Assembly (NCBI GenBank): GCA_963666975.2
Contig: CAXVYR010000004.1
Coordinates: 2,350,850-2,414,849 of the forward strand
Length of the DNA stretch: 64,000 nt
Reading direction: 5' to 3'
From: Terriglobia bacterium
Lineage (GTDB): Bacteria > Acidobacteriota > Terriglobia > 2-12-FULL-54-10
Position 1 is the first letter of the stretch. Each line of letters opens with the position of its first letter. The notes beneath the pieces are model-generated. The model did not search any database. It was not told the origin of the DNA and saw only the letters and a list, made by a program, of their open reading frames with translations. Position numbers and translations under genes: made by a program. Below are positions 31,838 to 63,827 of this stretch, one piece after another.

Positions 31838-31887
31838 TCCAAAATATCCATCCCGTGCTAAAATCCCCCGTCGGTTTGGGGGTGCGT

Positions 31888-42418: not shown

Positions 42419-42443
42419 TGATGTGGTCCAGAGCGTGGATGCC

Positions 42444-42719: not shown

Positions 42720-43087
42720 CTAAACCGCAAGTCATCCTCGACGATGGCGGGAAACCGGCATTCGCCGTGATCCCGTGGCGGGAGTACGCACGCTTGGCGA
42801 TGATGGATGCCGAGGCGGGGCTCAGCGACGAAGAGCTTTACGATCACGCCAAGTCCGTGGGTGGAGAGTCTTTTCCTATCGAGGTGGCGGATCGCCTTCT
42901 GGCGGGGGAGAAAGCCGTCAGGGTGTACCGTGAGCATCGTGGCATGACCCAGAAGCAACTGGCCAGTTCCGTTGGCATCAACGCGCTCTACCTGTCGCAG
43001 ATCGAGAGGGGCCGACGCACCGGCTCGGCCCGGACCTTGTCGGCCCTCGCCGAGGCGCTCGGCATCGATGTGGACGACCTGATCTGA
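42716..43087 (+). CDS. XRE-HTH antitoxin (toxin-first arrangement)
   Basis: GKPAFAVIPWREY...RGMTQKQLA...YLSQIERG; overlaps the toxin stop. Confidence 0.85.
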   Translation: MTKPQVILDDGGKPAFAVIPWREYARLAMMDAEAGLSDEELYDHAKSVGGESFPIEVADRLLAGEKAVRVYREHRGMTQKQLASSVGINALYLSQIERGRRTGSARTLSALAEALGIDVDDLI

Positions 43088-46334: not shown

Positions 46335-46890
46335 GTTAGCAGCGATCGGGTTTTTGTGCCGACCCGAAAAACGACCAAACATCCTCCGTAGATAAGATCG
46401 AACGTGCCAAGCCGAGTCGCGGGTGGCCAGTCCCGCCGGAAGGGCGGCGATGGGGACCCGCGAAGAGCCCCTGCGCCAACGGTTTTGCCGGGGTGTCGGC
46501 TGTGGCGCGGTGTTCTGGATCTGCCGTCATTGTGACCGGGGCCACCGATACTGCAGCGACCGATGCCGGCGGAAAGCACGGCGGCAACAACTGAGAGCCA
46601 CCAACCGGCGGCACCAGCAAAGCCGGGAGGGACGGCTCGATCACCGCGACCGGCAACGGGCCTACCGGGAACGCTGCCGCCGCCGCGTGACGGATCATAC
46701 TTCCCCCGCCAACTTCGATTCGGACAGTATCGTGGCAGCGGAGCCTTCCCGGTCCGAAAACGGATCGGGAAGCGTCTCCGGGGAGGTTCGATATGCCGAG
46801 AGCGCCGAATTTGAACCCGCCTGCATCATCTGCGGCCGCACCTGGGGGTCTGCGCCCCTCAAGCGGCCTTCACTTCTTGATGGGCGCTAG
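46335..46890 (+). mobile_element. Probable IS21-family left end with Cys-rich accessory ORF; istAB absent
   Basis: GTTAGCAGCGATCGGGTTTTTGTGCCGACCCGAAAAACGACCA end-like sequence; CRGVGC...CRHCDRGHRYCSDRC ORF. Confidence 0.45.
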
Positions 46891-46911
46891 CAACCAAGAG
46901 AGGGAGAAACC

Positions 46912-47106
46912 ATGATTCCAAAAAAGGACGAGAACGGCGAGAAGTACGCCACGGCCACGACGGAGGCTGAATTTCACGAGGCGCTGAATCGAGGGCTCGC
47001 GGTTGAACTGACGCGGGAACTGGCGGAGCGGATCGGAGTGCCTATGAACGAGGACGTGGGCGCCGTGGCCGAGATCGACCAGGCGCGACACGACCGCCAC
47101 GACTAG
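46912..47106 (+). CDS. Small hypothetical protein upstream of ardC
   Basis: 64-aa ORF with GGAG RBS. Confidence 0.5.
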   Translation: MIPKKDENGEKYATATTEAEFHEALNRGLAVELTRELAERIGVPMNEDVGAVAEIDQARHDRHD

Positions 47107-47121
47107 GAACGGAGGCGCACT

Positions 47122-47894
47122 ATGGCGAAGAAATCCTTTTGGCAGCGCGGGGAAGACTACGCCGAGAAAGTCAGCGAGGAACTCATCGAACAGATCAAGG
47201 CGGGTGTTGCACCCTGGCAGAAGCCGTGGAAGCCGGGGGAGCAGAGCAGCCCGGAGAACCTCTCGACCGGCAAACCCTACACGGGCGGCAACAGCCTCTA
47301 CCTGATGAGCAGGGGCATCCGCCAGGGCCACGGCGATAACCGTTGGGGCACCTACAACCAGATCAGAGAAGCGGGCGGGCAGGTTCGCAAAGGCGAGAAA
47401 GGGACGCAGGTCTTGTTTTTCACGGATCGGACGGCGCGAACCGCAAAGGACGAGCAGGGCAAGGTGCTCAAGGACAAGGACGGCAACACGATCTACGAAG
47501 AAGAGCAGCGGGGAAAGCCGATTTGTAAGCAGTACACGGTGTTCAACGTCGAGCAAGCCGATGGATTGGAGTTGAAGCCGCGACCGGCGCAAGCGCGGCC
47601 CGAATGGGACGCCCACCGCGATGCGGAGAAGGTGATTGAGGCCAGCGGGCCGAGGGTCGAGCACGTCCCCGGAGATCGGGCCTACTATCGGATCGCCGAG
47701 GATAAGGTGGTGCTCCCGGAGCCGAGGCAGTTCCCGACGCGCAACGGCTACTACCAGACGACGCTGCATGAATGCGGTCACTCGACCGGGCACCCGGAGC
47801 GCATGAACCGCGACACGCTCAAAGAAGGACTGGACAAGGGCTTTGGATCGCCGGAGTACGCCCGCGAGGAATTGCGAGCCGAGATCAGCGCCAT
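47122..47894 (+). pseudogene. ardC: ArdC anti-restriction protein, 5' part
   Basis: PWQKPW, YTGGN, WGTYNQ, VRKGEK, VFNVEQ, LHECGHSTGH and YAREELRAE motifs. Confidence 0.9.
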
Positions 47895-48008
47895 AACGGA
47901 CAAATAGAATCCACTGAAGTTTATATTCGTCCAGATAAGTCCATAACTAACTATATAATAAGTATATTATGGACGTTATGCGGAGGCTTGAGTGGCTCAC
48001 GACGTCCC

Positions 48009-48037
48009 TTGAAATCCACGGCTATCTCCTATATAAT
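48009..48037 (+). promoter_or_regulatory. sigma70 promoter of the island integrase
   Basis: TTGAAA-17-TATAAT, with ATG 7 nt downstream. Confidence 0.7.
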
Positions 48038-48043
48038 GAGGGG

Positions 48044-49276
48044 ATGCTTACTGTAAAGAACACACCCAAATTACCACGTAATACCAAGCCCCGAGGCCGC
48101 CATCCCGACAAGGCCCTGTCGGCTGCCTGCGTGCGTACGGTTGCGCCGGGACGGCACGCGGACGGAAATGGCTTGTACCTCTTCGTTCAGCCTAGCGGAA
48201 CCCGGAGCTGGATTCAGCGGCTCGTCGTTCGCAAACGCCGCCGCGAGCTCGGACTCGGCAGCGTCGCTCTGGTTTCGCTCGCCGAGGCCCGCGAAAAGGC
48301 TCTCTCCAACCGCAAGCTGGCCCGCGAGGGCGGCGACCCGCTCGCCGAGAAGCGCCGCGCCCAGGGCGTGCCCAGTTTCGCCGAAGCCGCCGCACGCGTG
48401 CTGGAACAGCAGCAGACCGGCTGGCGCGATCCGAATTACCCGAAGGTCTGGCTGAGCAACATGGAACGCTACGCCTTTCCGCGCATCGGGAAGATGCCGG
48501 TCTCGGAGGTGACCAGCGCCGATCTGTTGGATATCCTCACGCCCATCTGGCACGTGAAGGCGTCCACGGCTCGGTGCGTGCGCCAGCGCATCCGCGCGGT
48601 GTTGGAATGGGCCGTGGCGATGGAGTTCCGCATTGACAACCCCTGTGACCGGATTGTCCCCGTGCTCGGCGCACAACACGACGTCGTCGAACACATGCGG
48701 GCCTTACCCCATCGCGACGTGGCGGCGGCCATCGAGACGGTACGAGCGTCGGGGACGGAAACCGTGGCCAAGCTGGCATGCGAGTTCCTGGTGCTGACGG
48801 CGGCGCGGTGGAACGAGGTGCGCGAGGCCGTGTGGAGCGAAATCGATCGGACGGCCCGCGTATGGACGGTTCCCGCCACCAGGATGAAGGCGAAGCGTGA
48901 GCATCGGGTGCCGCTGTGTGGCCGCGCCATGGAGATTCTCGACGCGGCATGGGCGCTTGACGACGGAGCCAGTTCGTTCGTTTTCACCATCGGGGACGGG
49001 CAACCGCTTTTCGAAAAGCAGGTGCGCCGCCTGCTCCGTAAACTGGGTATCGGTGCCGTACCCCATGGATTTCGATCCAGCTTCCGGGACTGGGCAGCCG
49101 AGGAGACGGATCATCCCCGAGAAGTGATCGAGGCGGCCTTGGCGCACGTGGTCCGGAACAAGGTCGAGGCGGCCTACGCCCGCTCGGACCTCTTTGAGCG
49201 ACGGCGTATCCTAATGAACGACTGGGCGCGTTACCTGGCCCAAGGGACCACGAAGGATTCGGAGTCCTTAAGATAA
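48044..49276 (+). CDS. P4-like tyrosine integrase (arm-binding DUF4102 type)
   Basis: DGNGLYL, LGLGS...VSLAEAR, TAARWNE, RMKAKREH, HGFRSSFRDW and LAH...AAY motifs. Confidence 0.93.
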   Translation: MLTVKNTPKLPRNTKPRGRHPDKALSAACVRTVAPGRHADGNGLYLFVQPSGTRSWIQRLVVRKRRRELGLGSVALVSLAEAREKALSNRKLAREGGDPLAEKRRAQGVPSFAEAAARVLEQQQTGWRDPNYPKVWLSNMERYAFPRIGKMPVSEVTSADLLDILTPIWHVKASTARCVRQRIRAVLEWAVAMEFRIDNPCDRIVPVLGAQHDVVEHMRALPHRDVAAAIETVRASGTETVAKLACEFLVLTAARWNEVREAVWSEIDRTARVWTVPATRMKAKREHRVPLCGRAMEILDAAWALDDGASSFVFTIGDGQPLFEKQVRRLLRKLGIGAVPHGFRSSFRDWAAEETDHPREVIEAALAHVVRNKVEAAYARSDLFERRRILMNDWARYLAQGTTKDSESLR

Positions 49277-49443
49277 CATGGGCCGAAGCCATCCGGCGGG
49301 GAGACCCGAACAGAATGCGGCCAGCCCAGCGATGAATGTCCAGAGGCGTGCATCCCAGGAAGGAGAGATCATCCATCGTGATCCAGCCGCGCCGAAAGTT
49401 TCCTGACCGAGAACGATGTGCAGACGCCCGCTATCTACTCCAG

Positions 49444-49990
49444 TTAGCCAGTGTCGTTCTGCTGTCCGCAGTAGTGAAGCCGCAGAGCCTGAAGAGCTAC
49501 GATAGCTTCTTCAAGAAGTCGTCGGCCTGCTTCGGTCTTACTTGACGACTGAATCCCAAGTCTTGCGACGATCTTATCGTAGCCAGCGCCTTTCCGGTGG
49601 GCCGAACCAGTAGAGCGGAGAGTCTGGAGGTCTCTCAGAAACTGTACAACCAACTGACGTTCAAGAAACTGTGTCGCCTCCAGAAATCCCGCAAGTTTCC
49701 CGATGCCCTTGGTGCCCTTCTCCAGATCGTTTGCCTTGGCCGCCAATTCCCGTTCGTTCAACGAGTCTACAAGGAGCTTCGTCAGGTGACTAATCTGCTC
49801 GTCCAACTCAGCTTGGGAATTTGTAACCGGCACGCGAATCGTTTCCAGGAGGTGCTTATCCCCGGGCGCGGGCAGCAGAAATAGTGGCCATCCTTGTGCC
49901 CTCTCCCACTCAATCATGAGATCCGAGTATTAATGGCGAAACCTTAGATCGGGTGCTTTCGCGTCTACGGGCTGAGGAGCGTATTCGGAT
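49444..49990 (-). pseudogene. C-terminal fragment of a hypothetical protein
   Basis: ORF 49444-49917; 5' end lost at the IS630 scrap. Confidence 0.4.
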
Positions 49991-50100
49991 CTGGAAGAAG
50001 AAGACCGGGCCCGCCGTTAAAACAAGCCAGCCGGGAAGGCCTCATGATCGTCTTCGTCGACGAAAGCGGATTGAGCCAGCGGCCGCATCATTGCCGGACC
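49990..50100 (+). mobile_element. IS630-family internal fragment
   Basis: REGLMIVFVDESGLSQRPHHCRT. Confidence 0.6.
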
Positions 50101-50521
50101 CGATGGCGCCGAAAATTGCCACTCCGGTATAGAGGCTGCGCTCCGGGATAATGAGCCAGGAAGGGTTGCGCGATTCGACGGCTTTGACCGGGTGATGAAC
50201 CTCCCCAACAACGATCGACGGCCCGGCGTCTTTTGCGGGATTCGGAGGCCACGTTGGTAGCATTCCAATGTTCGGCATAGCGATGCCCCAAGACTCAAAC
50301 CAGACCCGCCAGACCGTGATGAGAAACAGTCCGCCGACGATGATGGCGGCGGCTGGCGCGATGTAGTACCACCAGACGATCCAGGTGTAGAAGTTGGGGG
50401 TGTGATAGAGCACCAGGTCGAGCATTGGATCGTCGCCGGGCAAGGGGAAAGGCCGGTAGATGAAACCCCAAGCGGAGCAGCCAAGCCCAGCGACTATCAG
50501 GATCGGATGGCGTATTTTCAT
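50095..50521 (-). pseudogene. Type IV coupling protein (TraD/VirD4-like) N-terminal fragment
   Basis: Two TM helices, then IPERSLYTGVAIFGAIGSG (Walker A start), broken at the IS630 scrap. Confidence 0.65.
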
Positions 50522-50590
50522 GGGGCTTGCCTGCGGCGCCTCAGCGCCCGCTTGGGGTTAGGGTTCGGAGCCTTCCCGCAGGGATAAATC

Positions 50591-50760
50591 AGACGAGAGC
50601 GACCCCCAAAAAAGGGGGGGCAGGGTATGCCACAAAGCCTGCCACAAACCCCTTTTCCTGTTTGCCGACCGGCAAAAAGGGGCCTCGGCTCAGGGCATAC
50701 CCCGATGCCGCTACTTCTGGCGCTGGATAGAGCGGCAAAAAAGGGGGGTCGCTCTCGTCT
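50591..50760. repeat. Nested inverted-repeat region (candidate oriT or ssDNA origin)
   Basis: 17-bp perfect IR 50591-50607/50744-50760 enclosing further IRs. Confidence 0.6.
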
Positions 50761-51185
50761 TTCTCCGTGCCCCTACTTCTGGCGCTGGATGGCCTGGTAG
50801 TAGCAGGCAAACACAAGCGAGGCAAAGATATAGACAAGATTGGTATGCCACATACTGAGCCACATACCATGCCACAAACACCCCCTTATATAAGTGGCAC
50901 AAAAGATCGGTACGGCCACCGTTCACGGCAGGCGTAAAAACCGTCTGTCTCGGTAACGATATCTGGAGTTCCATTGCTGCCGTTCACTAGACTGTTTCCT
51001 GCGCAAACTCAAGCGGTCAGAAACCCACGTCTCGAAGCCGTCAATGGTGGCTCCGGGGCCGCTCGACTTGGGTAGGTCTTTCAGTTCCATCAATCTGTCT
51101 GAGATTGCCTCGACCCCTCCGTACTTCGATATGATCCGCATGTCCACATTGATCAGCGCGTCCTCGATGTACTTGATTTCCGCCT

Positions 51186-51965
51186 TCACGTCAGGATCGT
51201 TCCGGCTCGGTCCATCTGCCCGCTGACTGGGAGGAACGTGCTCTGCTCACCCGCTCGGCTGCTCCACGTCTTTAGCGCCGCCTCGGCCCGGATTGTGGCT
51301 GTGTGGTCTGCGCCGATTACCACGACATGGACCTCGATGCATTTCAACCGCAAAGCCCGCCAAAGCCACTCATGCGCCGCACCCCAGGAACGCAGTTCGG
51401 TGTCGGTGTATTTGCCCGGATCGACGTAGATAAAAGTGGCGGTCCGGGAATCAGCCGCGATGGGCAGTTTCAGGGCAAAGTATCTGGTTTGTGACCCCAC
51501 GGCTCCCAGATAGACCCGGTGGGGCAAGCGCCTGCGGTCGATGCCAAGTAAATCGAAGAAAGCGACCTTTTCCTGCTCGGTGGGAAGCCAGGGAAGCTGC
51601 GGGTGTTCCAGAACGTAGTCGAGCGAGAGCAACCGCCGGAGCATGACGGAATAATCCGCATCCCGGCGGTGCCGGACGTTCTCAGTTCCTAGCGCCCGGT
51701 AAATCTCTTTGTTGGATATCCGGCACGCCTTTGCGCCGCCTCGCTTGTTAGGCAGAGCATCCTCTACGGCAAGCCCGTGCTTCACCATGTCGCGTACGAA
51801 TCGCAATGCTCGCTTTCGATCCGACACGGCATCGAAGAAGTAACAGAATTGAGCCCTCGTGAACACACCGCTATGCAGACAGACCAGGGCGATCCACTCC
51901 GCCTCGCGGCCCTTCCAGCCGAAAGGCTCTAACGACTTTTCTCGATCATGAAGATGCTCGATCAT
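51186..51965 (-). CDS. Conserved-looking ICE protein (wHTH-like N-terminus; possible relaxase/replication factor)
   Basis: EAEWIALVCLHSGVFTRAQF...RRLLSLDYVL...WLPTEQEKV; context next to a T4CP fragment. Confidence 0.55.
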   Translation of the reverse strand: MIEHLHDREKSLEPFGWKGREAEWIALVCLHSGVFTRAQFCYFFDAVSDRKRALRFVRDMVKHGLAVEDALPNKRGGAKACRISNKEIYRALGTENVRHRRDADYSVMLRRLLSLDYVLEHPQLPWLPTEQEKVAFFDLLGIDRRRLPHRVYLGAVGSQTRYFALKLPIAADSRTATFIYVDPGKYTDTELRSWGAAHEWLWRALRLKCIEVHVVVIGADHTATIRAEAALKTWSSRAGEQSTFLPVSGQMDRAGTILT

Positions 51966-52109
51966 TGCTACCCGCCGCCTACCGGATTTCGTCTGCCGTT
52001 CCAACATCTCCTTTTTTGTGGGTTGCCTTCCTAATCCTTAGCTATTTATCATACTGTCCAGCAGGTGCAACTAATAAGATTCGAGGCTGTGTCCACGGCT
52101 TCGGCGCTG

Positions 52110-52331
52110 AGGAGATCGCGCGGCGTGACCTTCGAACTGCCGACACGAAGTCTCGGCCGCAGCGATGTGAAGTTTCAGATCAAGCGCGATGGTGAGACGT
52201 TCGGAACCATGACGATATTGAATGGGTCCGTGGTTTGGTTTCCCAAGGGTGTTTCCTACGGCTGCCGCATGAAATGGAAACAGTTCAACGAATTGATGCA
52301 GAGGGAAGCCAAGCAATTTGAAAAGCGATGA
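52110..52331 (+). CDS. Small hypothetical protein (start uncertain or truncated)
   Basis: VTFELPTRSLGRSDVKFQIKRDGETFG... within ORF 52065-52331. Confidence 0.4.
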   Translation, partial: RRSRGVTFELPTRSLGRSDVKFQIKRDGETFGTMTILNGSVVWFPKGVSYGCRMKWKQFNELMQREAKQFEKR

Positions 52332-52439
52332 TCGCCGGGTGCCCAATCGTCGCCCCCATTTTCCACTACCAACTCTGGAGGAGAGAGGCTAGAGGAAACC
52401 GCCTCCGCCAGATCCCCCGCAAGCTCCTCTAGTTGCATT

Positions 52440-52620
52440 GCCTTCGACTCCTTCAACAACGGCTTGCCCGCATCCTTCAACTTCTTGTTCAGTGGTCTCT
52501 TTTTTCCTCCAACTTCACGGGCTGCACGCAGTAGAAGTCGAAGAGTTCCTCCAGAGTGTCTAGAAGTCTTATAGCCTCGTCAGGATCGGCTTCGATCACT
52601 TCGCCGGGGGGTGTGTTCTT
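52440..52620 (-). pseudogene. DUF4145-like C-terminal remnant
   Basis: EADPDEAIRLLDTLEELFDFYCVQP...NKKLKDAGKP. Confidence 0.4.
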
Positions 52621-52866
52621 GAGCTGCTTTCGTTCTCTCACCGAGGGCTTTACTATGCGGGTTGGTGGACCAGGAATCGAAACGGGCCAATCACAACTCG
52701 CCTCGAAAGGCGCGATGAAGCATGAACTAAAAGAGGGCGTCCAAGCGGCGAGGGGGGAACGCGGCACTAGCCCACGCTGAGGCATTATTGCGTGAGATCA
52801 CGGACGAGATCAAATTCCAATTCCTTCAATCTCCTCTTGGCTCGAAACTTCGCTAAGTTCACTACA

Positions 52867-55594
52867 TCAATCAGTCCTGGACCGTGCAGAGAGAACTTCC
52901 CCTTTGTATTCCCTGAAGCCTGCGAGCAATTGTTTGAACGAGGCAGGCTTGTATTTCTCAAAGCTCTCCTCGTCCACGTAAGCAAAGTCGTATTCCGCGT
53001 CCGCCTGTGCTCGGTTGATGTCTTCGCACCATTGCCGTAGCCGTTGCATCTTCAGTGGAACGTCAAGTTCTTCCCGGCCTTTGGTTTCCACAATGAAAAT
53101 CCGCTTGGCGGACAGCTTGACCAGAAAATCCGGGTAGTAGTTGGAGATGTCGCCGTCAGCATTCACATAATCCAGTTTGAAGCGTACCGCCAGATAATTC
53201 TTGGCGTAGGAAACCACGTCGCTGCAATCTTCCAGGAAGCTGGCAAACAGCAGTTCAAAATGGCTGTCCCCAATGATCTTGTTAAAGACGCTCTTTTTCG
53301 GAATAAGGTAGCCCTGATCTTTGGCTACGAAGGGCCGTGTCTGCCGCAGCTTGATGGTGTCCCGGATTTCGGCGTCGCCTTTGTCCTGCACGGTGAGCGC
53401 GTTGATCGCCTTCTTGAACGTTTCGATCAGGGTTTTGGTAGCGGCTAGTTCCGACAAGTTGCGCAGGGTGTTGGAGGTCTCCAGTTCCACAGGGACGGTC
53501 AAACAACTGCTCTTGCACAAACGCTTTGACCTTCCCGTACAGTACATCGTAACCGCTGACCAGCCGCAAATCCTTCATCAGGGTCTGCGCGAAAGTAGCC
53601 GATCACACTGCGGTAATCGGCAATGCCCGCCGTGTCGAGGATAGTGGTATGCGTCACCTCGCTGGTAGTGATGTCCTTGAAGACGATCTCCCTCTGTTCT
53701 TCCTCGCTGAAATGTTGGTAGGTCACGCGCTGATGCCCCAGGGCGCTCTCGTTCAGGTTGCTCAGGTTCTTGTATTCCCGATAGGCGCGCGGCGTAAGCA
53801 CGGGGATTTCAATGTCCAACGCCTCAATGTCTTTCTTGTCGTTTTCCTTGTCAATCTCCACTACCAACGGGGTCTTTGCCCCGGTGCCTTCGCCCATCGG
53901 CTTGCGTTCCAGCACCACGCCTTCTGCCTGAATGGATTCCACGAAAGTCCATGAAGGCATCCGTGCCGACCACGCTGACATATTCCTCCAGGCCGCCGGG
54001 ATACATTTTCCGCAGGCCGCGTCCCTAGGGTTTGTTCAGGCAGGATGTTGCTGGGGGCCGAATACGCTCGCAGCCCTACTATGGTGGTGACGTTCCGCAC
54101 GTCCCAGCCTTCTTTCAGCACCATCACCGAGATGATTGCCTTGTAGGGGCTGTCCAGCCCGTCAATCGAGTTGGCTTGATCGCGCAGTTTATCCAAATCT
54201 TCTTTGTTCTTGCCTGACGTTGATTCGGAAATCTCGCCATTATTCTTTGTGTGGATGACCAGCACGGCGTCTTTCAGATCGGGGTAGTGGCCTTCGAGGT
54301 ATTCGGCCACGTCGTCGCAGTTGCGAGTGTCATCGGTCATCACGAACAAGATGGCTTTCTTGCCCATCTTTTCGTGCTCGGCATACGCCTTGCGCCACTC
54401 GATTACGCCCAGGTGAATGTAATCGGCGTATTTCTCGGTGTACTTGGCGCTCTTCTGTTCCGTCAACTTGGCGCGGCTGGCGGCGTCGGGCAGCACCGGA
54501 TGCTTGACCACGTTTTGCGAGATGGCTTCCACCAGCGGGTAATCGGCGACGGTCTGCACGAAAATCGCGCCGTTGTTGTGCTTGGGCGTAGCGGTCACGT
54601 CCACTTGCAGGGAAAGGGCCGACCCTTTTTGCTTCAGGCGGTTGTGAATGTCTTCGATGGATTTGAACCATGCCATGCGCGGGTCGTGAATATGGTGGGC
54701 CTCGTCGTTCAATACCATCAGTTCATCGATGTCGCGCACGATCATGCCCAAATCCACTTTGGAATCGGTGGTCGCGCCAGTGGGCCGCTTGCCCAGAAAG
54801 TAATCCTTCGTGTCATCATCATCGGGCGATGTGGGAGTGTCGTCCCCGGCATAGACGCGGTGGATGTTGGTCAGGAATATGTTACCGGTGGGGCGGGTTA
54901 TGCGCACCTCGTCCTGCCGGTGCAGGGTCAGTTGAAAATCGTCGCGCCAGTTGCGCCCGTCCACGCCGTTGTCCGGCAGCACCGGGTCCGCAAAGAAGAT
55001 GCGCAGACCGTTGAAATCCTTGTAGATGCGGTCCAGCACGATAATGTTGGGCGCAATCACCAGGAAGTTGCGGGACAGCTCCGACTCCGGCTCATACAGC
55101 TTGTGGAAGAAACTCCAGGCCAGCACCAGGCTTAGCAGCTTGGTTTTGCCTGTGCCGGTCGCCATTTTCGCTACAAAGCGTCGCCAGGTCTCGTCAAACA
55201 TGCCCGTGGAAACCGCGCCGGCACTGTCGAAACGCATCAGGTCGTACTTGTCCTGCACGCCCACCACGTCGTACAGATAGACGATAGTCTCCAGCGCCTC
55301 GCGCTGGGCGAAGTAATACTGGAACTCGGCCAGCGTTTCCAGTGAAGCCCCGTCAGTTTGGGGGAGTAGGTGTGGCGTGTTGAACCACCAGTTGAGCAGG
55401 CTCTTGCTGGTGTCGCTCGCCCCCACGTAACCGCTTTCCCGCCATTCCTTCACTTTTTTGCGCAGTTGCGGCACCAGCGGCGGCATCAGCTTTTCAGAGA
55501 TGGAATCCCGCAGGCCTTCATCCGCCGGAAACCAACGGATAGACGGGTCGAGGATGGCATAGGGCGATTCGGGGAAGTTGGAATGGAGGGCCAT
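52867..55594 (-). pseudogene. res: Type III restriction enzyme Res subunit with about four +1 frameshifts
   Basis: KMATGTGKT, NDEAHH, TATP, LKEGWDV and EQTLG/RGLR helicase motifs; C-terminal YYPDF...IVETKG nuclease. Confidence 0.88.
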
Positions 55595-57750
55595 TATTTC
55601 CTCCCTCTCACATTGACTTCGACAATCGTCATGGTGTCATTGCCAAAGATGTCCACAACCTTTACCGCCAATTTGCTCCGCCCCGGTGCGCATTCGTGAA
55701 AGACGCTGGTCAGTTCCAGCGAACGGTCTTTCTTGGTGCGGAAGGACTGCCATTCGTTCTCGAAGATGTAATCCCCCGTCCAGACTTCCTCATATTCCGG
55801 TAGATCCAACTGTTCGGGCTGTTCCATCCCAGGAATCTGAACTTGTTTCATCTTGTCCCGCGGAATGCGGACGATCTCGCGCTTGCTCTCAAAGTTGAAA
55901 TCCACCGCCCAGTAGTCAATCCAGTCTGTCCATTTCTTGGTGAGCCGTTTGCGATTGACGATGCCCATCGCGTCCTTGCTCACCTTCACAATCTGCCCCT
56001 TTTCCGCCACGATCTTGCTGCCCTTGTTCTTGAGCGCAGCCTCCACGTTGGCGATGGAGTCCTGCGAATAGAAAACCGAAAAGTCGGTCAGTTCCACCGC
56101 CACGCTGTTTTTCTTGACGTGCGGCTTGACCTCAATCGCCGCCACATCGTGAAAGACCACTTGGTTCTTTTCCACCGCCCGCTTGTCGAACACCTCGGCG
56201 GGGATGTACTTGGGGGCGATGTCAATGCCCTTGGCGCGGGCTTCGTCCAGCACGTTAGGGAATAGCCCCATTTCAAACTCAAATCCCAGAATGTCCACGC
56301 GGGTGATGTGCTTCTTGCGGCATTCCAGGATCACCTCTTCCACAAACAGGCGCGTCACCGGCAGGTTGACCGGTCCCACCGCCACTAGCCGCCCAGCCTT
56401 CTTGCCGTGGAAGGTCTGGAAGCCGTCGGTCTTTTCGGCTCGATAGGCCCGCAGGATCAGGTCCACGAAGGCAGCTTCCTTTTCTTCCAGTTGCTCTTGC
56501 TGTTCCGCCTCGCGCAGGTTGGGATTCACACCGATGTAATGCTGGCGTTCGTACTTACCCAAGTTGAGGATTTCAAAGGCGCGGTAGTCTTTGCCTTCGG
56601 CTTTCAACTGCCGCTGCACGCCGATCATGCGCTTTCGCGTGGTATGGATGGCGAACTTTCCCAGATCGCCGACGATCCACTTGCGGCCCTCCTTCTCGGC
56701 CACTGCCGCCGTAGTGCCGCTCCCGCAGAAGAAGTCGGCCACTAGGTCGCCTTCGTTAGAGGAGGCTTGAATGATGCGTTCGATGAATTTTTCTGATTTT
56801 TGTGTTGGGTACCCAAGATGCTCTGTTGGATACCTTGACGCTGGATTAACATCGGCCCACCAGTCTTCTGGGATTTTTCCTGCATCATTTAATTTCACAT
56901 CGTTAAAAATGGTGCCCCCTTTTTTAATGACGTTTCGGTTTGCTCTACTTAGACTTTCATCTGCATAGGGAATTCGCACATCATTTAAATTCAGTGTCAG
57001 AGACTCACTTTTTGTAAACAGGAATATAGTGTCGTGCTTCCGAGGGAAATTACTGCGAACATTTGAGGGGGATGTATAACACCATATTAATTCATTACGC
57101 ATATTCCCCTTCCCAAAAACATCGTCTAAAACCATCCTGATATAACTATTCACGCGCCAGTCACAATGCACATAAATACTCCCATCCTCCGCCAGTAAAT
57201 CCCGCATCAGCGCCAGCCGCTCGTAGATCATGGCGATGAAGGAATCCGCACCCTTGCCCCAGGTGTCACGGTAGGCGATCTCTTCCAGGATGTTGGGTTT
57301 CTTGGTGAAGGTTTCGTCGCCGATCTCGATGTCCATTGAAAAATCCGCGCCCACGTCAAAGGGCGGGTCAATATAGATCAACTTGAGGCCGCCTTGTTTT
57401 TCGATCTCCTCGCGCAGCGGCCCGTTCTTTAGGGATGACAGGATCAGCTTGTTGTCGCCCCAGATGAGCTTGTTGGTCCAGCCCTTGAGCTGGCGGCCCC
57501 GCGAATCGGTTGCGAACAGGTCCGCTTGCAGCGCCGTCTCTTCCGGCTTCTCGGCGCGCGGCTCGTCCACCTGCTCGATCACCTGGAAAGGCAGAACGAT
57601 ATTGCAGACCTCGCTGGTTTTGCCGTTCCAGACCAGTTCCACCTCGCGCTTGTCCTCAAACAGCAGAAAGCGATACTTGTCCGGCAAGGGCTTATCAGCT
57701 TCGATAAAGCGGATGATCTCTTGTTGTTCCTGCTCAGTCAGTCGGGCCAT
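55594..57750 (-). CDS. mod: Type III R-M Mod subunit (beta-class amino-methyltransferase)
   Basis: LIYIDPPF motif IV, YPTQK, DFFCGSGTT motif I; coupled to res. Confidence 0.92.
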   Translation of the reverse strand: MARLTEQEQQEIIRFIEADKPLPDKYRFLLFEDKREVELVWNGKTSEVCNIVLPFQVIEQVDEPRAEKPEETALQADLFATDSRGRQLKGWTNKLIWGDNKLILSSLKNGPLREEIEKQGGLKLIYIDPPFDVGADFSMDIEIGDETFTKKPNILEEIAYRDTWGKGADSFIAMIYERLALMRDLLAEDGSIYVHCDWRVNSYIRMVLDDVFGKGNMRNELIWCYTSPSNVRSNFPRKHDTIFLFTKSESLTLNLNDVRIPYADESLSRANRNVIKKGGTIFNDVKLNDAGKIPEDWWADVNPASRYPTEHLGYPTQKSEKFIERIIQASSNEGDLVADFFCGSGTTAAVAEKEGRKWIVGDLGKFAIHTTRKRMIGVQRQLKAEGKDYRAFEILNLGKYERQHYIGVNPNLREAEQQEQLEEKEAAFVDLILRAYRAEKTDGFQTFHGKKAGRLVAVGPVNLPVTRLFVEEVILECRKKHITRVDILGFEFEMGLFPNVLDEARAKGIDIAPKYIPAEVFDKRAVEKNQVVFHDVAAIEVKPHVKKNSVAVELTDFSVFYSQDSIANVEAALKNKGSKIVAEKGQIVKVSKDAMGIVNRKRLTKKWTDWIDYWAVDFNFESKREIVRIPRDKMKQVQIPGMEQPEQLDLPEYEEVWTGDYIFENEWQSFRTKKDRSLELTSVFHECAPGRSKLAVKVVDIFGNDTMTIVEVNVRGRK

Positions 57751-58041
57751 ACAAGGGTCTCTCCTCCATTGGTAAAAATTGCACGTTAAGGCGCTAAGGG
57801 CGCTTGACGTAGCAAACGGATAACTGCGGTGCGACTGACCCCGAGGCGCTTGGCGATTTCCCGATTATTCAGCCGATCCTTGCTGACCAGAGTCGGGCCA
57901 TACAAGGGTCTCTCCTCCATTGGTAAAAATTGCACGTTAAGGCGCTAAGGGCGCTTGACGTAGCAAACGGATAACTGCGGTGCGACTGACCCCGAGGCGC
58001 TTGGCGATTTCCCGATTATTCAGCCGATCCTTGCTGACCAG
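57740..58041. repeat. 151-bp perfect tandem duplication covering the mod start and RBS
   Basis: 57740-57890 equals 57891-58041. Confidence 0.9.
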
Positions 58042-58367
58042 ACCGAGGTTTTGTACCAAGCGTTGTGAGAGAGTTTACATGACAGCCTGTGGTTGTGAAA
58101 CTAGTTTTGGGGGAGAGAATGGATTACAGGCCCTCGGCGCAGCACAACCCGTGATCTTCCATTCGCAGCATGTGCAGGTTGCCTACCTCACTCGACTGCC
58201 TCGGATGCAGGGGTTCGAGGGTTGATCGTTCGGGAAACCTGTCCGGGGACGTCTTCGAGGGTCCAATGGATTCCCCTTCAGAAAGAGGGGTCTGATGAGG
58301 GAATCATAGTGGACGTTTTGTCAACATATCTAGTGTTATCAATTACTTAAAGTCAATATAGCGTGGC

Positions 58368-58689
58368 CAGCGCCATGATGACGGGGGAGCGCGTGGGCGT
58401 GGGGCATGACCCGCAGCGCGGCGCGGCCTATGTCGAGAATTGGGTTGCGGTCCTGGAAAAAGACCCGCACGAGATTCATAGAGCGGCGCGGGACGCGCAG
58501 CGGATGACCAATTACCTGATGGACCGTGCGGTCGAGCACGAGCGCGAAGCGCCGGTCAAGGAGAAGACGGCGGCGGAGTTGAGCCACCAATATTCTCATG
58601 CTCGCGGGCCTCAGATCAGCCAGACGCCGAAGCAATCCACGGAACAACACGCGCAGAAGCTCCAACGCGAGGTTGGGTTGAGCCGGTAA
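58368..58689 (+). pseudogene. ardC: ArdC 3' part
   Basis: SAMMTGERVGVGHDP...AAYVENW...IHRAARDAQR continues the ArdC C-terminus. Confidence 0.85.
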
Positions 58690-58698
58690 GGAGCCGTC

Positions 58699-59595
58699 GT
58701 GTTCGATCCGCGAGACCTAGCTACCGATCCCCGCAGGACCGTAACGCGCCCCAGGCGCGACCACACCAAAGAGCGGGAACAGCGGGAGCGCAGCGGCCAC
58801 CGGCGCGAATACGATCCCCGCACCGAGCGCAAGAACTTTCAGGAGCGGGCGGATCGGGCGGTGGCCGACGTGGGGATGTATCGGAGTGTCGCCTACCGCG
58901 ACCTGGCCGATGCTCACTTCGATGGACACCCCTACGTGGCGCGTCGGGCCGTGGATCGCATGATTCGGGCCGGGCACGTCCGGGAGCACACTGCCGAGGG
59001 GCCGCAAGGCGGCGCCTACAAGGTGCTCACGCTCACCGAGCGCGGAGTAGAGCGGGCCGGGCGGGTAGCCCGCGAACAAGGACTCGACAAAGAGCAGAAA
59101 GCATGGAGCGGCCTCGTGAAGCCCGGAGAGCTTCAACATGACGTGGCCGTGTTTCGAGCCGCAAGGATTGAGCAAGTGCGGTTGCTCGAACAAGGAGCCG
59201 TCCTCAAGCGGGTCCGCATTGACGCCGAACTCAAGCGCGAGGTCGCCCGCGCCACGGAAAGCGCCAGAGCGCGAGGCGGAAAGGAAGCGGCGGACGCCGC
59301 ACGGTTTGAGGCGGCGGAGGCGCTGGGGCTCCCCGTCAAGGATGGACGGGTGGAATACCCGGACGCGCAGCTGGAGTACGACATCGAGGGCCGCAGCGGG
59401 CGCGTGAACGTCGAGATTGCGACCGAGCACTACAGCGCCAAGAGTATCGGCGCGAAAGCCGCCGCTGGATTCGCCGTGCATGGAAGCAATGGGCGGGCGG
59501 CGGCGCGAGTAGCGCGGGCGCTCGGCCAGGACCACAGCACCGGAGGCGGAGGGGGAAGCGGCGGCAGACGAGACAAGGGCTCCATCGAACTCTGA
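58699..59595 (+). CDS. Replication-relaxation (MOBC-like) relaxase candidate
   Basis: wHTH (LTLTERG), QHDVAV and PDAQLEY...VNVEIATEHY nuclease-like motif; located upstream of virB genes. Confidence 0.6.
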   Translation: MFDPRDLATDPRRTVTRPRRDHTKEREQRERSGHRREYDPRTERKNFQERADRAVADVGMYRSVAYRDLADAHFDGHPYVARRAVDRMIRAGHVREHTAEGPQGGAYKVLTLTERGVERAGRVAREQGLDKEQKAWSGLVKPGELQHDVAVFRAARIEQVRLLEQGAVLKRVRIDAELKREVARATESARARGGKEAADAARFEAAEALGLPVKDGRVEYPDAQLEYDIEGRSGRVNVEIATEHYSAKSIGAKAAAGFAVHGSNGRAAARVARALGQDHSTGGGGGSGGRRDKGSIEL

Positions 59596-59605
59596 GGGAG
59601 AAGCG

Positions 59606-59929
59606 ATGCAACCGTGGAAAATCAGTGTCGGACTGACGGCCATCCTCCTGGCCGTGGCCTTGATGCTCGCCGGCGAGAGCTTCGCTTATCTCAAGCCGTA
59701 CTTAGGAATCATCGCAACCGACTACTGGCTGCCCGTCGCGTGGCATGGCGGTCTGGCCGTGGTGACGCTGATGGTCATGATCTACTCCGCCGCTCGCGCC
59801 TTGGGGCTGGCCGACATGGGCCTCAAGGTCGATCTGATGGAGCGGTCCATCCGGCGCGGCGAGGGCGGGCAAATCGAGCTTGCCGAGAAACTGGAACAAG
59901 AGGACCGGGGGCAGTTTCCCGGAGCCTGA
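59606..59929 (+). CDS. Hypothetical 2-TM protein of the conjugation operon
   Basis: RBS and two hydrophobic segments. Confidence 0.6.
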   Translation: MQPWKISVGLTAILLAVALMLAGESFAYLKPYLGIIATDYWLPVAWHGGLAVVTLMVMIYSAARALGLADMGLKVDLMERSIRRGEGGQIELAEKLEQEDRGQFPGA

Positions 59930-59961
59930 CGCACAGCGACCCAACAGACACGGAGGGAAGC

Positions 59962-60255
59962 ATGAAGAACAACAACTCAATCATCTGGAAGCGGGGAGCG
60001 CTGCTGGCGAGCGTCCTTGCACTATCGGCGGGAGAACTCATGGCGCAGGGAACAAGCCCCTGGTTGCAAGCCATAGACGTGCTGCAACAGGCGTTCACCG
60101 GACCCATTGCGCGAGGACTGAGCTTGATTGCCATCGTGGTGGGCGGGCTCATGTTCGCCTTTGGTGAAGGCGGCAGCAAAAAGGCCCTGGCCGGGATCGT
60201 CTTCGGTCTTGGCATGGCCATGGGCGCGGCCAGCTTCCTCGCCTGGCTCTTCTGA
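59962..60255 (+). CDS. virB2: TrbC/VirB2 pilin
   Basis: Signal peptide; SPW...FTGPIARGLSLIAIVVGGLMFAFGEGG. Confidence 0.88.
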   Translation: MKNNNSIIWKRGALLASVLALSAGELMAQGTSPWLQAIDVLQQAFTGPIARGLSLIAIVVGGLMFAFGEGGSKKALAGIVFGLGMAMGAASFLAWLF

Positions 60256-60551
60256 TGGAGCGCGGCAAGACATGGCGCGGCTACCCGGCGCTTTCCAAAC
60301 CCCTCACGATCATGGGCGTGGAACGGCGCTGGTTCCTTCTGAGCGCCACGTTGGGCCTTGCCATGTGGAACGCCATCAACTCCATTGTGACCGGGGGAGT
60401 CATTTTCGGAGTGCTCTACGGCGTGGGATTCTGGGCCTGGAAACAAGACCCCAACATGCTTGAAATCCTACGGGCGTCGGCCAAGTTCCGCGTCCGCTAC
60501 GATCCCGGCAAATGGGCGGCGGCTCCCTGGACGATCCTGATTCGGAGATAG
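60255..60551 (+). CDS. virB3: VirB3/TrbD T4SS protein
   Basis: LSKPLTIMGVER...KQDP; between virB2 and virB4. Confidence 0.85.
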   Translation: MERGKTWRGYPALSKPLTIMGVERRWFLLSATLGLAMWNAINSIVTGGVIFGVLYGVGFWAWKQDPNMLEILRASAKFRVRYDPGKWAAAPWTILIRR

Positions 60552-60554
60552 CGC

Positions 60555-62978
60555 GTGAACGTGAACGACGAACTCATGGACTACGAAGCGGCGGGATCGC
60601 TGGCCGAGGAACTGCCCTGGTGGGGCTGGCTCGAAGATGGGCAAACGTGCCTGACGCGGGCGGGAGAACTTATGAGCATCGGGCGGATGACGCCCAGCGT
60701 TCTGGACGGCCAGACCCCCGAACAACTGGATCGGGTCATCGACCGCTGGCAGCGGATGTTGTCGGGGCTCGATTCCAGGACGCGGCTTTACTTCTATCTG
60801 TTGCGCCGCCCGATCCACTTTGCGGACGAGTTCGACGGCGCGGCATCGAGCGTGGCCGCGCTCGGACGGCGCAAGCGGCGGGCGTTCCTCGCGGATCGAG
60901 TGCAGGACGTGAGCGCCTACGTCGCATGGGTTCACGATCCGCACCTGTCCGCCGTCACCACCGGAAGGACGGGCGGGCCGTGGTGGATGGCCTATGCCAA
61001 GAACTGGATGGCCCGGCGGCGGAACCGGCATGAATCCGTTTACCTCCATTCCTCTATCGAATCCGCAGCAGCCAGCTTCCGGCAGCTGGTCGAGGCGAGC
61101 CGGGCGCTGGTCGACGACCTTACGCCGGTGCGGATGCTCGAAGCGCGGGATGCGTCTCTCGTTCTGAATGAACTCACGAACCGGCCCGGAACCTTTTGGG
61201 ACGGCGCGAGGGGCAGCGGCATGAATTGGCGGCTGGCCGTCTCAGAGCTCGAAGCGGAGCGGCGCAATCTGCGCCTGGACGGGGAACCCGTCATTCTCTA
61301 CTCGCTGCTTTCGCCTCCCGCTGCGGCTCGCGCCAATCTTCTGCAGGGTCTTTACCGGCTCGATGCGACGATGACGGTGACGCTCGAATGGCGACCGCAG
61401 CGCCTCGATGCCGCCCGGCGCAAAATCCGTGGAGCGCAGCGGCATTACTTCTCGAAGCGCTACTCGATGTCCGCGCACGTTCAGGAAACCGAGGGAACCG
61501 CGTCAGCGATGGTGGACACCGCAGCGGCGGCGGAATCCGACCGGCTGGGCGATGCCCTGGTCGAGTTGGAGACGGACGGTATCGCCTACGGCGACCTGGC
61601 CCTGACCGTGGCGATCCACGGCCCGTTATCGGAGACCGAGGGCCTGGACGGAGATATTCGGCGCATCTTTAACAGCCACGACGCCAAGGTGATCCGGGAG
61701 GGTTACGGGCAGCTTCCGGCCTGGTTCTCGCGGATGCCCGCGCAACCGCGACGGCGGCAGGTTCGATCCGTGTTTGTATCGGCGGGCGCGGTTGCTTCGA
61801 TGGCCCCGATCTTCGGGCCGCCGGTGGGGACACCCCGGAGCGGCCACTTGCGGAAGCCGGCGCTGGCGATCCTTGAGACCCAATGGCGGACTCCCTACCA
61901 CTACGATTTGTTTCAAGGCGACGTGGGGCACACGCTGGTTCTCGGCGCGACCGGCGCGGGTAAAAGCTTCTTGCTCAATTTCCTGCTGGTTCAGGCGCTC
62001 CAATACGATCCGCGTGTTCTCATCCTCGATCTAGGCGGCTCCTATCGCTGGCTCACGCAGTTTCTCGGCGGAGGCTATATGGAGCTATCCCCCGAAGGGG
62101 GCGCGGGCGCCGGTTTCCGGTTGCGCCCCTTCTCGCTCCCGGCGGGGGCGCGCACCTTCCAGTTCCTCACCGGCTGGATATCGCGTCTGTTGAGGATCGG
62201 CGGGTGGAAACTCAGCGGCGAAGACCCCAGCGAGATTCGCGCCCGCGTCGAAGACCTCTATGCCTTTGCACCCCAGCGGCGGACCCTTGGGGTGCTGGTC
62301 CGCTCCCTTCCCGCAAAGATGTGGCCCGCTTTGGGCCGTTGGCACGGAGCCGGAGCGTGGGCCAGGTACTTTGACAACCCGGCGGACGAAGACGATCTCA
62401 ACTTCCAGGACTGGCAGGTGATCGACATGGCGGGGGCGGCGGAGCACGAAGACTTGTGCGAAGCGGCGCTGTTCTACCTTCTCGAACGGTTGCGGCTGGC
62501 TTTGGAGAACCCGAATGAGACCGCAAGGGTAAAACTCATGGTGGTCGATGAAGCCTGGCGCTACCTGAAAGACCCGGCCATTCTCGGCTACCTGGCCGAA
62601 GCCGCTAAGACCTGGCGCAAGAAGAATGCGGCGCTCGTCGTCGCCACGCAGAGCGCCGTGGACGTAACCGGGACCGCAGGGGCGGAAGCGTTGCTCGAAT
62701 CCATGCCGACCAAGCTATTTCTCGCCAATCCCGATTTGCCGGAGAAAGCCGCCGAGACGTTCCGGCTGAACCCTTCGGAAATGAACACCATTCGCGGCTT
62801 GATTCCCAAACGGGAGCTTTACCTACGGCGCACCGACGCGGCGGGCATCTTGCGGCTCGAAGTCGATCCGGCCAGCTATTGGCTCTATACCTCGTCGCCG
62901 GTCGATGCTCAGAAGCGGGCGGAAGCCGTCAAACAGTATGGCCTCACCGAGGCCATTGAACACCTGTCCAGGAGGTAG
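60555..62978 (+). CDS. virB4: VirB4/TrbE conjugative ATPase
   Basis: GHTLVLGATGAGKS, ILDLGGSY, VVDEAW and RKKNA...ATQS motifs. Confidence 0.93.
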   Translation: MNVNDELMDYEAAGSLAEELPWWGWLEDGQTCLTRAGELMSIGRMTPSVLDGQTPEQLDRVIDRWQRMLSGLDSRTRLYFYLLRRPIHFADEFDGAASSVAALGRRKRRAFLADRVQDVSAYVAWVHDPHLSAVTTGRTGGPWWMAYAKNWMARRRNRHESVYLHSSIESAAASFRQLVEASRALVDDLTPVRMLEARDASLVLNELTNRPGTFWDGARGSGMNWRLAVSELEAERRNLRLDGEPVILYSLLSPPAAARANLLQGLYRLDATMTVTLEWRPQRLDAARRKIRGAQRHYFSKRYSMSAHVQETEGTASAMVDTAAAAESDRLGDALVELETDGIAYGDLALTVAIHGPLSETEGLDGDIRRIFNSHDAKVIREGYGQLPAWFSRMPAQPRRRQVRSVFVSAGAVASMAPIFGPPVGTPRSGHLRKPALAILETQWRTPYHYDLFQGDVGHTLVLGATGAGKSFLLNFLLVQALQYDPRVLILDLGGSYRWLTQFLGGGYMELSPEGGAGAGFRLRPFSLPAGARTFQFLTGWISRLLRIGGWKLSGEDPSEIRARVEDLYAFAPQRRTLGVLVRSLPAKMWPALGRWHGAGAWARYFDNPADEDDLNFQDWQVIDMAGAAEHEDLCEAALFYLLERLRLALENPNETARVKLMVVDEAWRYLKDPAILGYLAEAAKTWRKKNAALVVATQSAVDVTGTAGAEALLESMPTKLFLANPDLPEKAAETFRLNPSEMNTIRGLIPKRELYLRRTDAAGILRLEVDPASYWLYTSSPVDAQKRAEAVKQYGLTEAIEHLSRR

Positions 62979-62984
62979 CTGATT

Positions 62985-63827
62985 ATGTTGAAGATCATTC
63001 CACTCGTGACGGCGGCGCTGCTGGCCCTGTCGTTGCCGCTGATCGCTCAGGACGGCGGGCAGGTCCTGCGCGTCATCGAGGCCCAGGATCAAATCATCCA
63101 GATTCGGGCCAAGACCCGGCACACCACCGTCATCGTGCTTCCCGCGACGGAAAACGTGCTGGATTTTGTCGTGGGAGATTCCGAGTACTGGCACCTGACC
63201 GGGGCCGCTAATCTGGCCTTCCTCAAACCCATCGCCGAGGGCGTGACTACCAACGTCGCGCTGGTTTGCGCCTCCGGTCGCATCTACTCGTTCCTCGTCA
63301 CCGAGCGGAGCGCGGGAGATCCGCACCTGGTGGTTCGCATCGAGGCGCAGGGAGAAGCCGACCCGCGCATTTCACCGGCCGGGCACGAACCGGCCTTTGT
63401 CGCTCGCTCCCAGGTCGCGGCCTATCAGCAGATGGCGGAAACGGCCATCGAGACGGCCAAGGCCGTGCAGGTAGACGCGGATACCCGGATCGCGGAAACG
63501 GCGCTCGTGGAGGCACAGAAAACCGAGGCGTTCCGGGCGGAGTATCCCACGCGCCTCAAGTTCCCTTACCGATTGGAGGACAAGGCAAAGAAATGGCCGT
63601 TTCTAGTTGAAGGGATGTGGCACGACGGGCGGTTTACCTACCTTCGCGCCAACCCCCAGGAGTCGCCCGCGCTGTACGAAGAGAAGGACGGGAAACCGGC
63701 GCTGGTGGCCTACGATCTGGGCGAGGACGGGCTGTATATCGCCCGTCACGTTTTAGGTGACGGCTGGTTGCAGATCGGCAAACAAAAAGTCCGGTGGCGC
63801 TTCACCGCGCCGGAGATCGGGCCGTGA
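62985..63827 (+). CDS. virB9: VirB9/TrbG T4SS outer-membrane complex protein
   Basis: Signal peptide; TTVIVLP...GDSEYW, FLKP...TNV and WHDGRFTYL motifs. Confidence 0.85.
   Translation: MLKIIPLVTAALLALSLPLIAQDGGQVLRVIEAQDQIIQIRAKTRHTTVIVLPATENVLDFVVGDSEYWHLTGAANLAFLKPIAEGVTTNVALVCASGRIYSFLVTERSAGDPHLVVRIEAQGEADPRISPAGHEPAFVARSQVAAYQQMAETAIETAKAVQVDADTRIAETALVEAQKTEAFRAEYPTRLKFPYRLEDKAKKWPFLVEGMWHDGRFTYLRANPQESPALYEEKDGKPALVAYDLGEDGLYIARHVLGDGWLQIGKQKVRWRFTAPEIGP

Follow-up and report, generated by a model that had tools for sequence, protein, structure and literature searches.

The locus considered here raises the question of why an island that carries a restriction-modification (R-M) system should lie within an anti-restriction gene, and whether it came to this position by site-specific integration or by accident. 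It is located in a stretch of 64,000 nucleotides from a Terriglobia bacterium (assembly GCA_963666975.2, contig CAXVYR010000004.1, positions 2,350,850 to 2,414,849 of the forward strand), which was analysed as a whole and is referred to as the window. In the window, the ardC gene of an integrative and conjugative element (ICE) is interrupted: its reading stops at 47894 and picks up again at 58368, and the intervening 10,473 bp (47895..58367) form the island. A preliminary description of the locus, made from the sequence alone, had proposed that the insertion inactivates ArdC, that the island gains transfer while disarming its host element, and that excision could turn ArdC back on. We consider it likely, with a probability of roughly 80%, that the insert is a site-specific island of the integrative and mobilizable element (IME) type, which sits in a conserved stretch of ardC and rides with, or is mobilised by, the conjugative element.

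In this model, a P4-type tyrosine integrase would recombine an attP core with a brief, strongly conserved segment of ardC, the codons that directly follow the Glu which binds the metal in the zincin domain, and the integration would leave a direct repeat of 9 bp (window) to 14 bp (relatives) and split the gene. ardC would be chosen because its DNA is conserved across the copies of one widespread conjugative element with a mating-pair formation (MPF) system of the MPF_T type, and because the gene is presumably dispensable for mating. An island in ardC would ride with the element (cis-mobilisation), and those relatives that encode an MbeA-like relaxase and MobC could be mobilised by it. Such hitch-hiking is a plausible account of the locus.

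The split ardC gene and its junctions

The 5' part of ardC (47122..47894, forward strand) retains 258 native codons, and its frame runs on into the island as an open reading frame (ORF) of 261 amino acids (aa; 47122..47907), which ends with EELRAEISA followed by three island-encoded codons and a stop at 47907. The 3' part (58368..58689, forward strand, ~105 codons) lies within an ORF of 108 aa (58363..58689), which starts with M-A-S-A, continues with MMTGERVG, and is colinear with intact copies of the gene. The N-terminal piece carries the Pfam domain ArdcN (PF08401, 4.9e-36, residues 12-141), while the MPTase-PolyVal domain (PF18818) is shared end to end by both pieces, which match its profile positions 2-87 and 85-125 of 126, respectively. 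The N-terminal piece also aligns with the ArdC protein of R388 (6i89_A) over residues 9-234 of 297 (E 7e-28), and its HECGH and EEL segments correspond to HEATH and E229 of R388, i.e. to the zincin HExxH motif and the downstream Glu. The ORFs and the division of one domain between them confirm that ardC is split by the insert, and that, as stated in the preliminary description, it breaks at EELRAEISA and resumes with MMTGERVG some 10.5 kb further on.

Each junction carries one copy of the 9-bp direct repeat CAGCGCCAT, the attL core at 47886..47894 and the attR core at 58368..58376, in identical codon phase. When the insert and one repeat copy are removed in silico, a frame of 361 codons is restored, which aligns without a gap at the junction to the intact 356-aa ArdC paralogue on contig C2 of the same genome. 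Two earlier claims, that a direct repeat marks both junctions and that precise excision would restore one frame, hold to this extent. Taken alone, the repeat is weak evidence, since the window contains a third, unrelated copy at 35166, and three copies, compared with 0.81 expected, are reached in 3 of 100 shuffles. This weakness speaks for a one-off secondary insertion, in which an integrase with another normal target would have hit ardC by chance, and the comparison with other genomes bears directly on it.

The integrase gene (47969..49276, forward strand) is free of stops and encodes 435 aa with the three Pfam domains Arm-DNA-bind_3 (PF13356), Phage_int_M (PF22022) and Phage_integrase (PF00589), in agreement with the P4-like integrase first described for the insert. 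The catalytic hexad of tyrosine integrases is R-K-H-R-H-Y; by position and motif, R280, K307, H366, R369, H393 and Y403, which all occupy columns with a conservation of at least 97% in 96 homologues, are candidate catalytic residues. P4/SXT-type integrases with Arm-DNA-bind_3 (DUF4102) target tRNA genes or the ends of housekeeping genes. The window enzyme resembles them in its domain architecture and in the short core identity with the target, whereas the insertion here lies in the middle of a domain of a protein gene, no replacement 3' end is supplied, and the family has diversified over many targets and occurs in multiple copies per genome. A tRNA-targeted island is ruled out, since the 64-kb window contains no tRNA gene.

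The same ardC codon and the integrase family in other genomes

Among 116 integrase loci, against which the N- and C-terminal pieces of ArdC were run by tblastn, the integrases most identical to that of the window are those of L042 (77-78%) and L040 (76%), both from Longimicrobiales. At both loci an N-terminal piece of ArdC (54% identical) ends at the same residue as in the window, ~95 bp before the integrase. A pattern scan of 101 genomes of the family to which the hosts of L040 and L042 belong yielded two further places, in genomes G571 and G570. In total, the ArdC N-terminal piece (54-55% identical) ends at this residue and is followed by the island end GGACACATAGAATCCA at L040 (genome G401), L042 (G402) and L217 (G571), and the left end of the window island, GGACAAATAGAATCCA, is common to the Longimicrobiales ardC islands. 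The C-terminal piece lies ~10.3 kb downstream at L040, and attR lies 13.5 kb from attL at L042; the repeat at attR is 14 bp long at both loci, compared with 9 bp in the window. In G571, ardC and the same attL are accompanied by a remnant only of the integrase, most of which has been lost. The search for relatives at the same codon was thus positive in three further genomes, all of Gemmatimonadota.

Two further results bear on how these insertions arose. The first 140 nt of the islands are 93-95% identical, compared with 85-89% for the flanking ardC and 65-82% farther out; since likeness thus drops from the islands to their flanks, the ardC insertions are probably separate integrations rather than one inherited event. 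In G570, an island of the same type (integrase 74% identical, MbeA-like relaxase, MobC) lies in a gene other than ardC, at the look-alike CAGCGCGATGATG of the ardC core, which supports a sequence-specific mode of recognition. Unoccupied ardC copies of both phyla, including that on C2 of the present genome, carry the core ATCAGCGCCATGATGAC, a putative empty attB. G402 has about nine copies of ardC, one of which is occupied by the island. These data support the view that ardC is a recurrent, sequence-specific landing site rather than an accidental one; the proposal of a site-specific island in ardC of an element bearing a type IV secretion system thus gains from the shared codon and island end.

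The copies of ardC in G402, a Longimicrobiales metagenome-assembled genome (MAG), lie on the 1.7-Mb contig G402:C5 (L119, L121, L123, L125, L127 and others), and the ardC-bearing element itself must therefore be highly multi-copy there.

The integrase belongs to a large family. The present genome encodes two paralogues that are 75-76% identical to it, located in unrelated genes, i.e. a TPR gene and a PHP-like gene; the island inside the TPR gene measures ~12.9 kb and has a 10-bp repeat at its ends. Among 201 related genomes, 28 contain an integrase match at E <=1e-100, often in multiple copies and often with in-frame stops, and none exceeds 81% identity. When one genome per species was scanned, 261 integrase relatives were obtained, the best 80 of which are 65-77% identical and come from records of Terriglobia, Vicinamibacterales, Candidatus Versatilivorator, Longimicrobiales, Candidatus Palauibacter and one Gammaproteobacteria bin; the record titles suggest that the hosts are sponge and coral symbionts.

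The targets were counted at 115 distinct places of family integrases with at least 400 nt of upstream sequence. Five adjoin a gene of the ICE panel (ardC at three, virB4 at one, the type IV coupling protein (T4CP) gene at one), and 110 lie elsewhere. At L147, a VirD4-like gene is cut at about residue 284, with full ICE synteny upstream, and at L060 the integrase adjoins virB3 and residues 4-58 of virB4. The latter was dropped as a mapped virB4 insertion, as the rest of virB4 was not found beside the island, and is recorded as an island that abuts a 5' fragment of virB4. Automatic typing by the longest ORF at the junction (131 flanks) was also abandoned, being too noisy in GC-rich DNA to name targets, and named targets are restricted to flanks confirmed by tblastn with named proteins. 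Since the remaining flanks show different recurrent motifs, the family appears to have many specificities, with ICE genes as a minority target. The notion that the integrase targets a conserved ICE gene hence stands for the recurrent ardC insertions and fails for the family as a whole. The two paralogues in other genes and the 110 places away from ICE genes are what would be expected if ardC had been hit by chance; on the other hand, the same codon together with the same island end in three genomes of another phylum largely refutes chance, and the greater likeness of the islands than of their flanks also speaks against it, so that a one-off insertion is very improbable.

In the FastTree phylogeny, which comprises 96 integrases, the enzyme of the window shows a weak grouping with those of its own host lineage, and those of L040 and L042 fall inside a Gemmatimonadota clade; the three full-length ardC integrases do not form one clade. 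Forcing them together in IQ-TREE (40 rows) costs 27.4 log-likelihood units, with a borderline p-AU of 0.0496. A single ardC-specific lineage is therefore unsupported, which calls for convergence or exchange as an explanation. The window, L040 and L042 have the first 16 bases of the island end in common, and farther in the window arm resembles the arms of its own paralogues; this pattern would fit integrases that converged on ardC as well as an exchange of the part next to the core. A swapped specificity module was considered and rejected: in sliding-window identity, L040 and L042 rank first merely over residues 121-210 and 301-360, and by 2-4 points, which is too weak. A wider scenario, which we hold to be rather doubtful, is that the family has radiated over at least three phyla into dozens of specificities, that several of its lineages parasitise one family of conjugative elements (in ardC, virB4 and the coupling-protein gene), that the ardC specificity arose twice or passed between backbones, and that the islands ferry R-M systems between phyla while reversibly truncating an anti-restriction protein.

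The scatter of the ardC integrases in the tree weighs against a site-specific island riding with its ICE, as do the following results. The ardC junction is rare, being present in four genomes of two lineages, and all data are MAG assemblies. It is absent from 400 other genomes of the class of the window (pattern scan) and from 120 other genomes of the order of G401; ardC adjoins none of the 80 best metagenome loci of the integrase scan (best 74% identical), and viral contigs scanned with the attL pattern gave 0 matches. No excised form was found: in the Logan contigs of 4 sequencing runs, which cover the island in part and come from 16 listed runs, all with small word shares, no island-skipping joint occurs among the 15 joints listed. 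Pfam, NCBIfam and tblastn with the L040 relaxase revealed no relaxase, MobC or excisionase gene in the window island, nor was an oriT found. Finally, the copy of the conjugative element in the window is bounded on the left by insertion sequence (IS) copies and gene fragments and cut on the right by the contig end, and a second set of virB10, virB6 and virB8 was not found in the assembly. For these last reasons transfer of this copy is doubtful, and it may be incomplete, either decayed or cut by the contig end.

Several observations on the family and its flanks were made in passing. Relatives of genus g10 (G023, G047, G145 and others) have up to 8 scored integrase copies and 88-93 first-look candidates per genome, many of the copies with single in-frame TAG or TGA stops, which suggests a massive expansion followed by decay. 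In Vicinamibacterales (L061, L062, L070, L107, L113, L114), family integrases form head-to-head pairs with 5' ends ~90 bp apart, and 13 flanks in the flank clustering are themselves family integrase genes; such pairs could reflect tandem accretion, or islands whose target is the integrase region of another island. In Gemmatimonadota (L054, L057, L058, L080, L084, L089, L093), islands lie beside a ...VTVTV... Ig-like repeat of Big_2-type proteins, which looks like another recurrent target class. A pattern match with 2 mismatches in G317 was set aside as chance, as it is accompanied by neither an integrase nor ArdC.

Cargo, mobilisation and the truncated ArdC

The GC content is 0.51-0.58 over 49-58 kb, where the cargo lies, compared with 0.60-0.66 in the flanks. 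An orphan ORF of 157 aa (49444..49917, reverse strand) has no family above threshold in Pfam, NCBIfam or PADLOC and no homologue in the other loci compared. It is followed by the N-terminal fragment of a VirD4-like coupling protein (50042..50521, reverse strand), a stump of 159 aa that ends at the Walker A region and is 59-68% identical to the N-terminus of a 563-aa protein in the ICE copy on C2; the latter matches NCBIfam VirD4-like CD1115 (5e-8) and Pfam TrwB_AAD_bind (0.0066), both below cut-off. Next come an 88-aa ORF and a conserved 273-aa protein, w273 (together 50923..52007, reverse strand). The order of w273, the small ORF and the T4CP gene is identical to that in the intact element copy on C2, which reads virB8, w273, small ORF, 563-aa VirD4-like gene and virB11. 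Homologues of w273 occur in 25 loci, often immediately after a family integrase, and also between virB8 and the T4CP gene in ICE copies; w273 has no match among the Pfam, NCBIfam, PADLOC or PDB profiles. As to the mobilisation remnants claimed for the insert, the VirD4-like fragment and w273 are present and a relaxase is not.

Between the coupling-protein stump and the 88-aa ORF, the segment 50316-50742 stands out in all 4 compared runs by its summed contig depth of up to ~7,500 and by numerous small joints and indels, which points to a short high-copy repeat inside the island.

The R-M genes were correctly recognised from the start. The type III mod gene (55594..57750, reverse strand) is intact and encodes 718 aa (Pfam N6_N4_Mtase 1.5e-43; PADLOC MTase_III 1.8e-124), with 75% identity over 723 aa to the Mod of an Aminobacter plasmid; in a megablast of the island against plasmids, matches are confined to mod and res, at 76-78%, on two rhizobial plasmids. 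The res gene (52867..55594, reverse strand; Pfam ResIII and RE_endonuc; PADLOC REase_III 4.9e-12) is in pieces, so that the type III class is assigned here with the Res domains present and no intact Res reading frame in this assembly. Its frame changes at least 4 times, near 54022, 53945, 53592 and ~53500, a feature that the preliminary description does not mention, and the 895-aa Res of Aminobacter aligns to it as 5 segments in shifting frames. As the contigs of all 4 compared runs have one base fewer than the window at 54022, 53947 and 53591, the breaks may stem from decay specific to the strain or from local errors of assembly in short homopolymers.

Lacking a relaxase, and with its coupling-protein gene cut short and its res frameshifted, the island appears partly decayed and may now supply the Mod methyltransferase alone. 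This leads to a stronger view, namely that the island was once site-specific and is now an immobile fossil, whose live functions are Mod and perhaps the integrase. Besides the broken res, the 159-aa stump and the absence of a relaxase, it is favoured by the copy in G571, which lost most of its integrase, and by the in-frame stops in many family integrases of relatives; the intact integrase and the two intact att cores of the window speak against it, as does the coincidence of the res frame changes with single-base differences that could be assembly errors. We regard such a fossil as possible, though not as the favoured state of the island.

The relatives are better equipped. L040 combines a relaxase of the MbeA-like type (NCBIfam 2e-26) and a MobC-like ORF with a complete set of type I R-M genes (HsdM, HsdS, HsdR). 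In L042, the relaxase and NikA/MobC are accompanied by a large LRR/Big_2 protein, an HSDR_N_2 protein and an HsdR tail of 51 aa, which L040 has in identical form and which amounts to a type I remnant; an MbeA-like relaxase with MobC is found in L040, L042 and L218. By their gene content, L040 and L042 appear to be IMEs in the usual sense. The window island has its own integrase and repeat-bounded att sites and, as IMEs do, carries no mating-pore genes of its own, the 159-aa T4CP stump being the sole related piece; no relaxase or oriT of its own was identified, and it is thus best described as an IME-derived island rather than a proven IME. The claim that it gains transfer is not borne out, given the missing relaxase and the decayed or contig-cut copy of the host element. 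Defence cargo, on the other hand, does recur, with type III R-M in the window, type I in L040 and the type I remnant in L042.

The insertion point lies ~7 residues after the Glu equivalent to R388 E229. ArdcN, HExxH and the Glu ligand are thus retained in the truncated product, from which the last 60 (R388 numbering) to 105 (here) residues are missing. According to the consulted part of the study of R388 ArdC (PMC7213743), the protein counteracts HsdRMS and is required in the recipient, and its E229A mutant, in which the metal-binding Glu is changed and the protease is dead, is still fully anti-restriction. The truncated ArdC may be unstable; nevertheless, the claim that the insertion inactivates ArdC or disarms the element is not supported by the domains retained or by the proficiency of E229A.

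The same evidence bears on the view that the island was selected to land in ardC as an act of anti-defence sabotage, in which an R-M island would profit from the knock-out of anti-restriction and excision would serve to switch ArdC back on. The target is indeed a known anti-restriction gene, the cargo is an R-M system in the window and in L040 and the remnant of one in L042, the frame would be made whole again by a precise excision, and the truncation removes ~60 residues of the R388-equivalent zincin domain. Against this, the truncated ArdC retains its key motifs, the E229A result indicates that R388 ArdC does not need protease activity for anti-restriction, ArdC acts in the recipient (as far as the part consulted of PMC7213743 goes), no gain for the island from the loss of ArdC is evident, and other members of the family lie in genes unrelated to defence. 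Sabotage is accordingly unlikely. As to the switch, the contigs of the 4 runs, which belong to 4 studies, contain ardC alleles without an insert, whose loose ends at 47894 and 58368 run on into the rest of the gene. With 4 of 18 letters different from the window flank, these alleles are related ardC copies rather than excision products.

The host element, known systems and surroundings

The genes around the split ardC belong to a conjugative element. Two small genes (46423..47106, forward strand), which encode a 155-aa Cys-rich protein and a 64-aa protein without a Pfam family, lie 5' of ardC, and the same pair stands in the same order beside the intact ardC on C2. Beyond the 3' part of ardC, the remainder of the element (58699..63827, forward strand) comprises genes for a 298-aa protein, virB2/TrbC, virB3, virB4 and virB9/CagX (Pfam TrbC, VirB3, P-loop_TraG, CagX). 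The gene order around ardC matches that of the intact ardC copies in C2, L095 and L147. The copy on C2 adds TrbI/virB10, virB6, virB8, virB11, the VirD4-like gene and a tyrosine integrase of another kind, so that MPF genes are represented by virB2, virB3, virB4 and virB9 in the window and by a fuller set on C2. No relaxase family was detected in the window or C2 copy, and a plasmid megablast of the ICE flank gave no match.

Fragments of a third copy of the element were also noticed in this genome, at C3:36367-39586 (C-terminus of the T4CP, virB11, integrase) and C3:85022-85428 (tail of virB8, head of w273); judging from such pieces, this family of conjugative elements is in the course of being broken up here.

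IMEs within ICEs have been described in Firmicutes. The consulted part of a review reports, for ICEs of the Tn5252 superfamily, IMEs with serine recombinases inside, and disrupting, Maff2-like, SNF2-like and traG/VirD4 genes (PMC5704250). The likeness to the present case is close, in that small elements are inserted site-specifically in conserved ICE genes, including the coupling-protein gene, and can travel with the ICE or be mobilised by it; the principle of IMEs in conserved ICE genes is hence already known from that source. What differs is the P4-type tyrosine integrase, the Acidobacteriota and Gemmatimonadota MAGs, the ardC target and the R-M cargo. IMEs integrated in the oriT of ICEs of Firmicutes, as presented in the portion consulted of PMC7563843, likewise choose a conserved site of the helper ICE, whereas their target is non-coding and they encode a Rep_trans relaxase. 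As regards the target protein, R388 ArdC (PDB 6I89/6SNA; PMC7213743, consulted in part) has the same two-domain build as the split gene, while it is distant (~30% identity by eye), and the role of ArdC in the present phyla would be carried over from it by analogy.

In the literature searched, no report of ardC as an attachment site was found, and the matches opened mention ardC merely as a gene of an island or plasmid. What is new here is the enzyme class, the phyla, the ardC target and the link with R-M cargo. If the site-specific reading is true, this would be the first anti-restriction gene to serve as a dedicated attachment site, as far as that search shows, and the nesting of IMEs in conserved ICE genes would extend from the serine recombinases of Firmicutes to tyrosine-integrase islands of Acidobacteriota and Gemmatimonadota. 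It would also offer a concrete route for the spread of R-M systems between phyla in host-associated communities, apparently those of sponges and corals according to record titles and run labels, and the natural series of related integrases (65-78% identical) with different mappable cores would be useful for the study of how tyrosine integrases change their targets.

The window is a mosaic rich in IS in its left half. A 433-aa transposase-like ORF of an IS family occurs there three times, at 12065-13366, 30220-31521 and 33064-34365, and one pair of the copies is inverted around a 561-aa tyrosine-recombinase ORF at 31825-33510. A gene for a 638-aa VapE-like/PriCT_1 primase-type protein (27135-29051; Pfam 4.7e-80) suggests another integrated element upstream of the ICE remnant. 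At 42423-43087, two small overlapping ORFs of 98 and 123 aa show a toxin-antitoxin-like arrangement.

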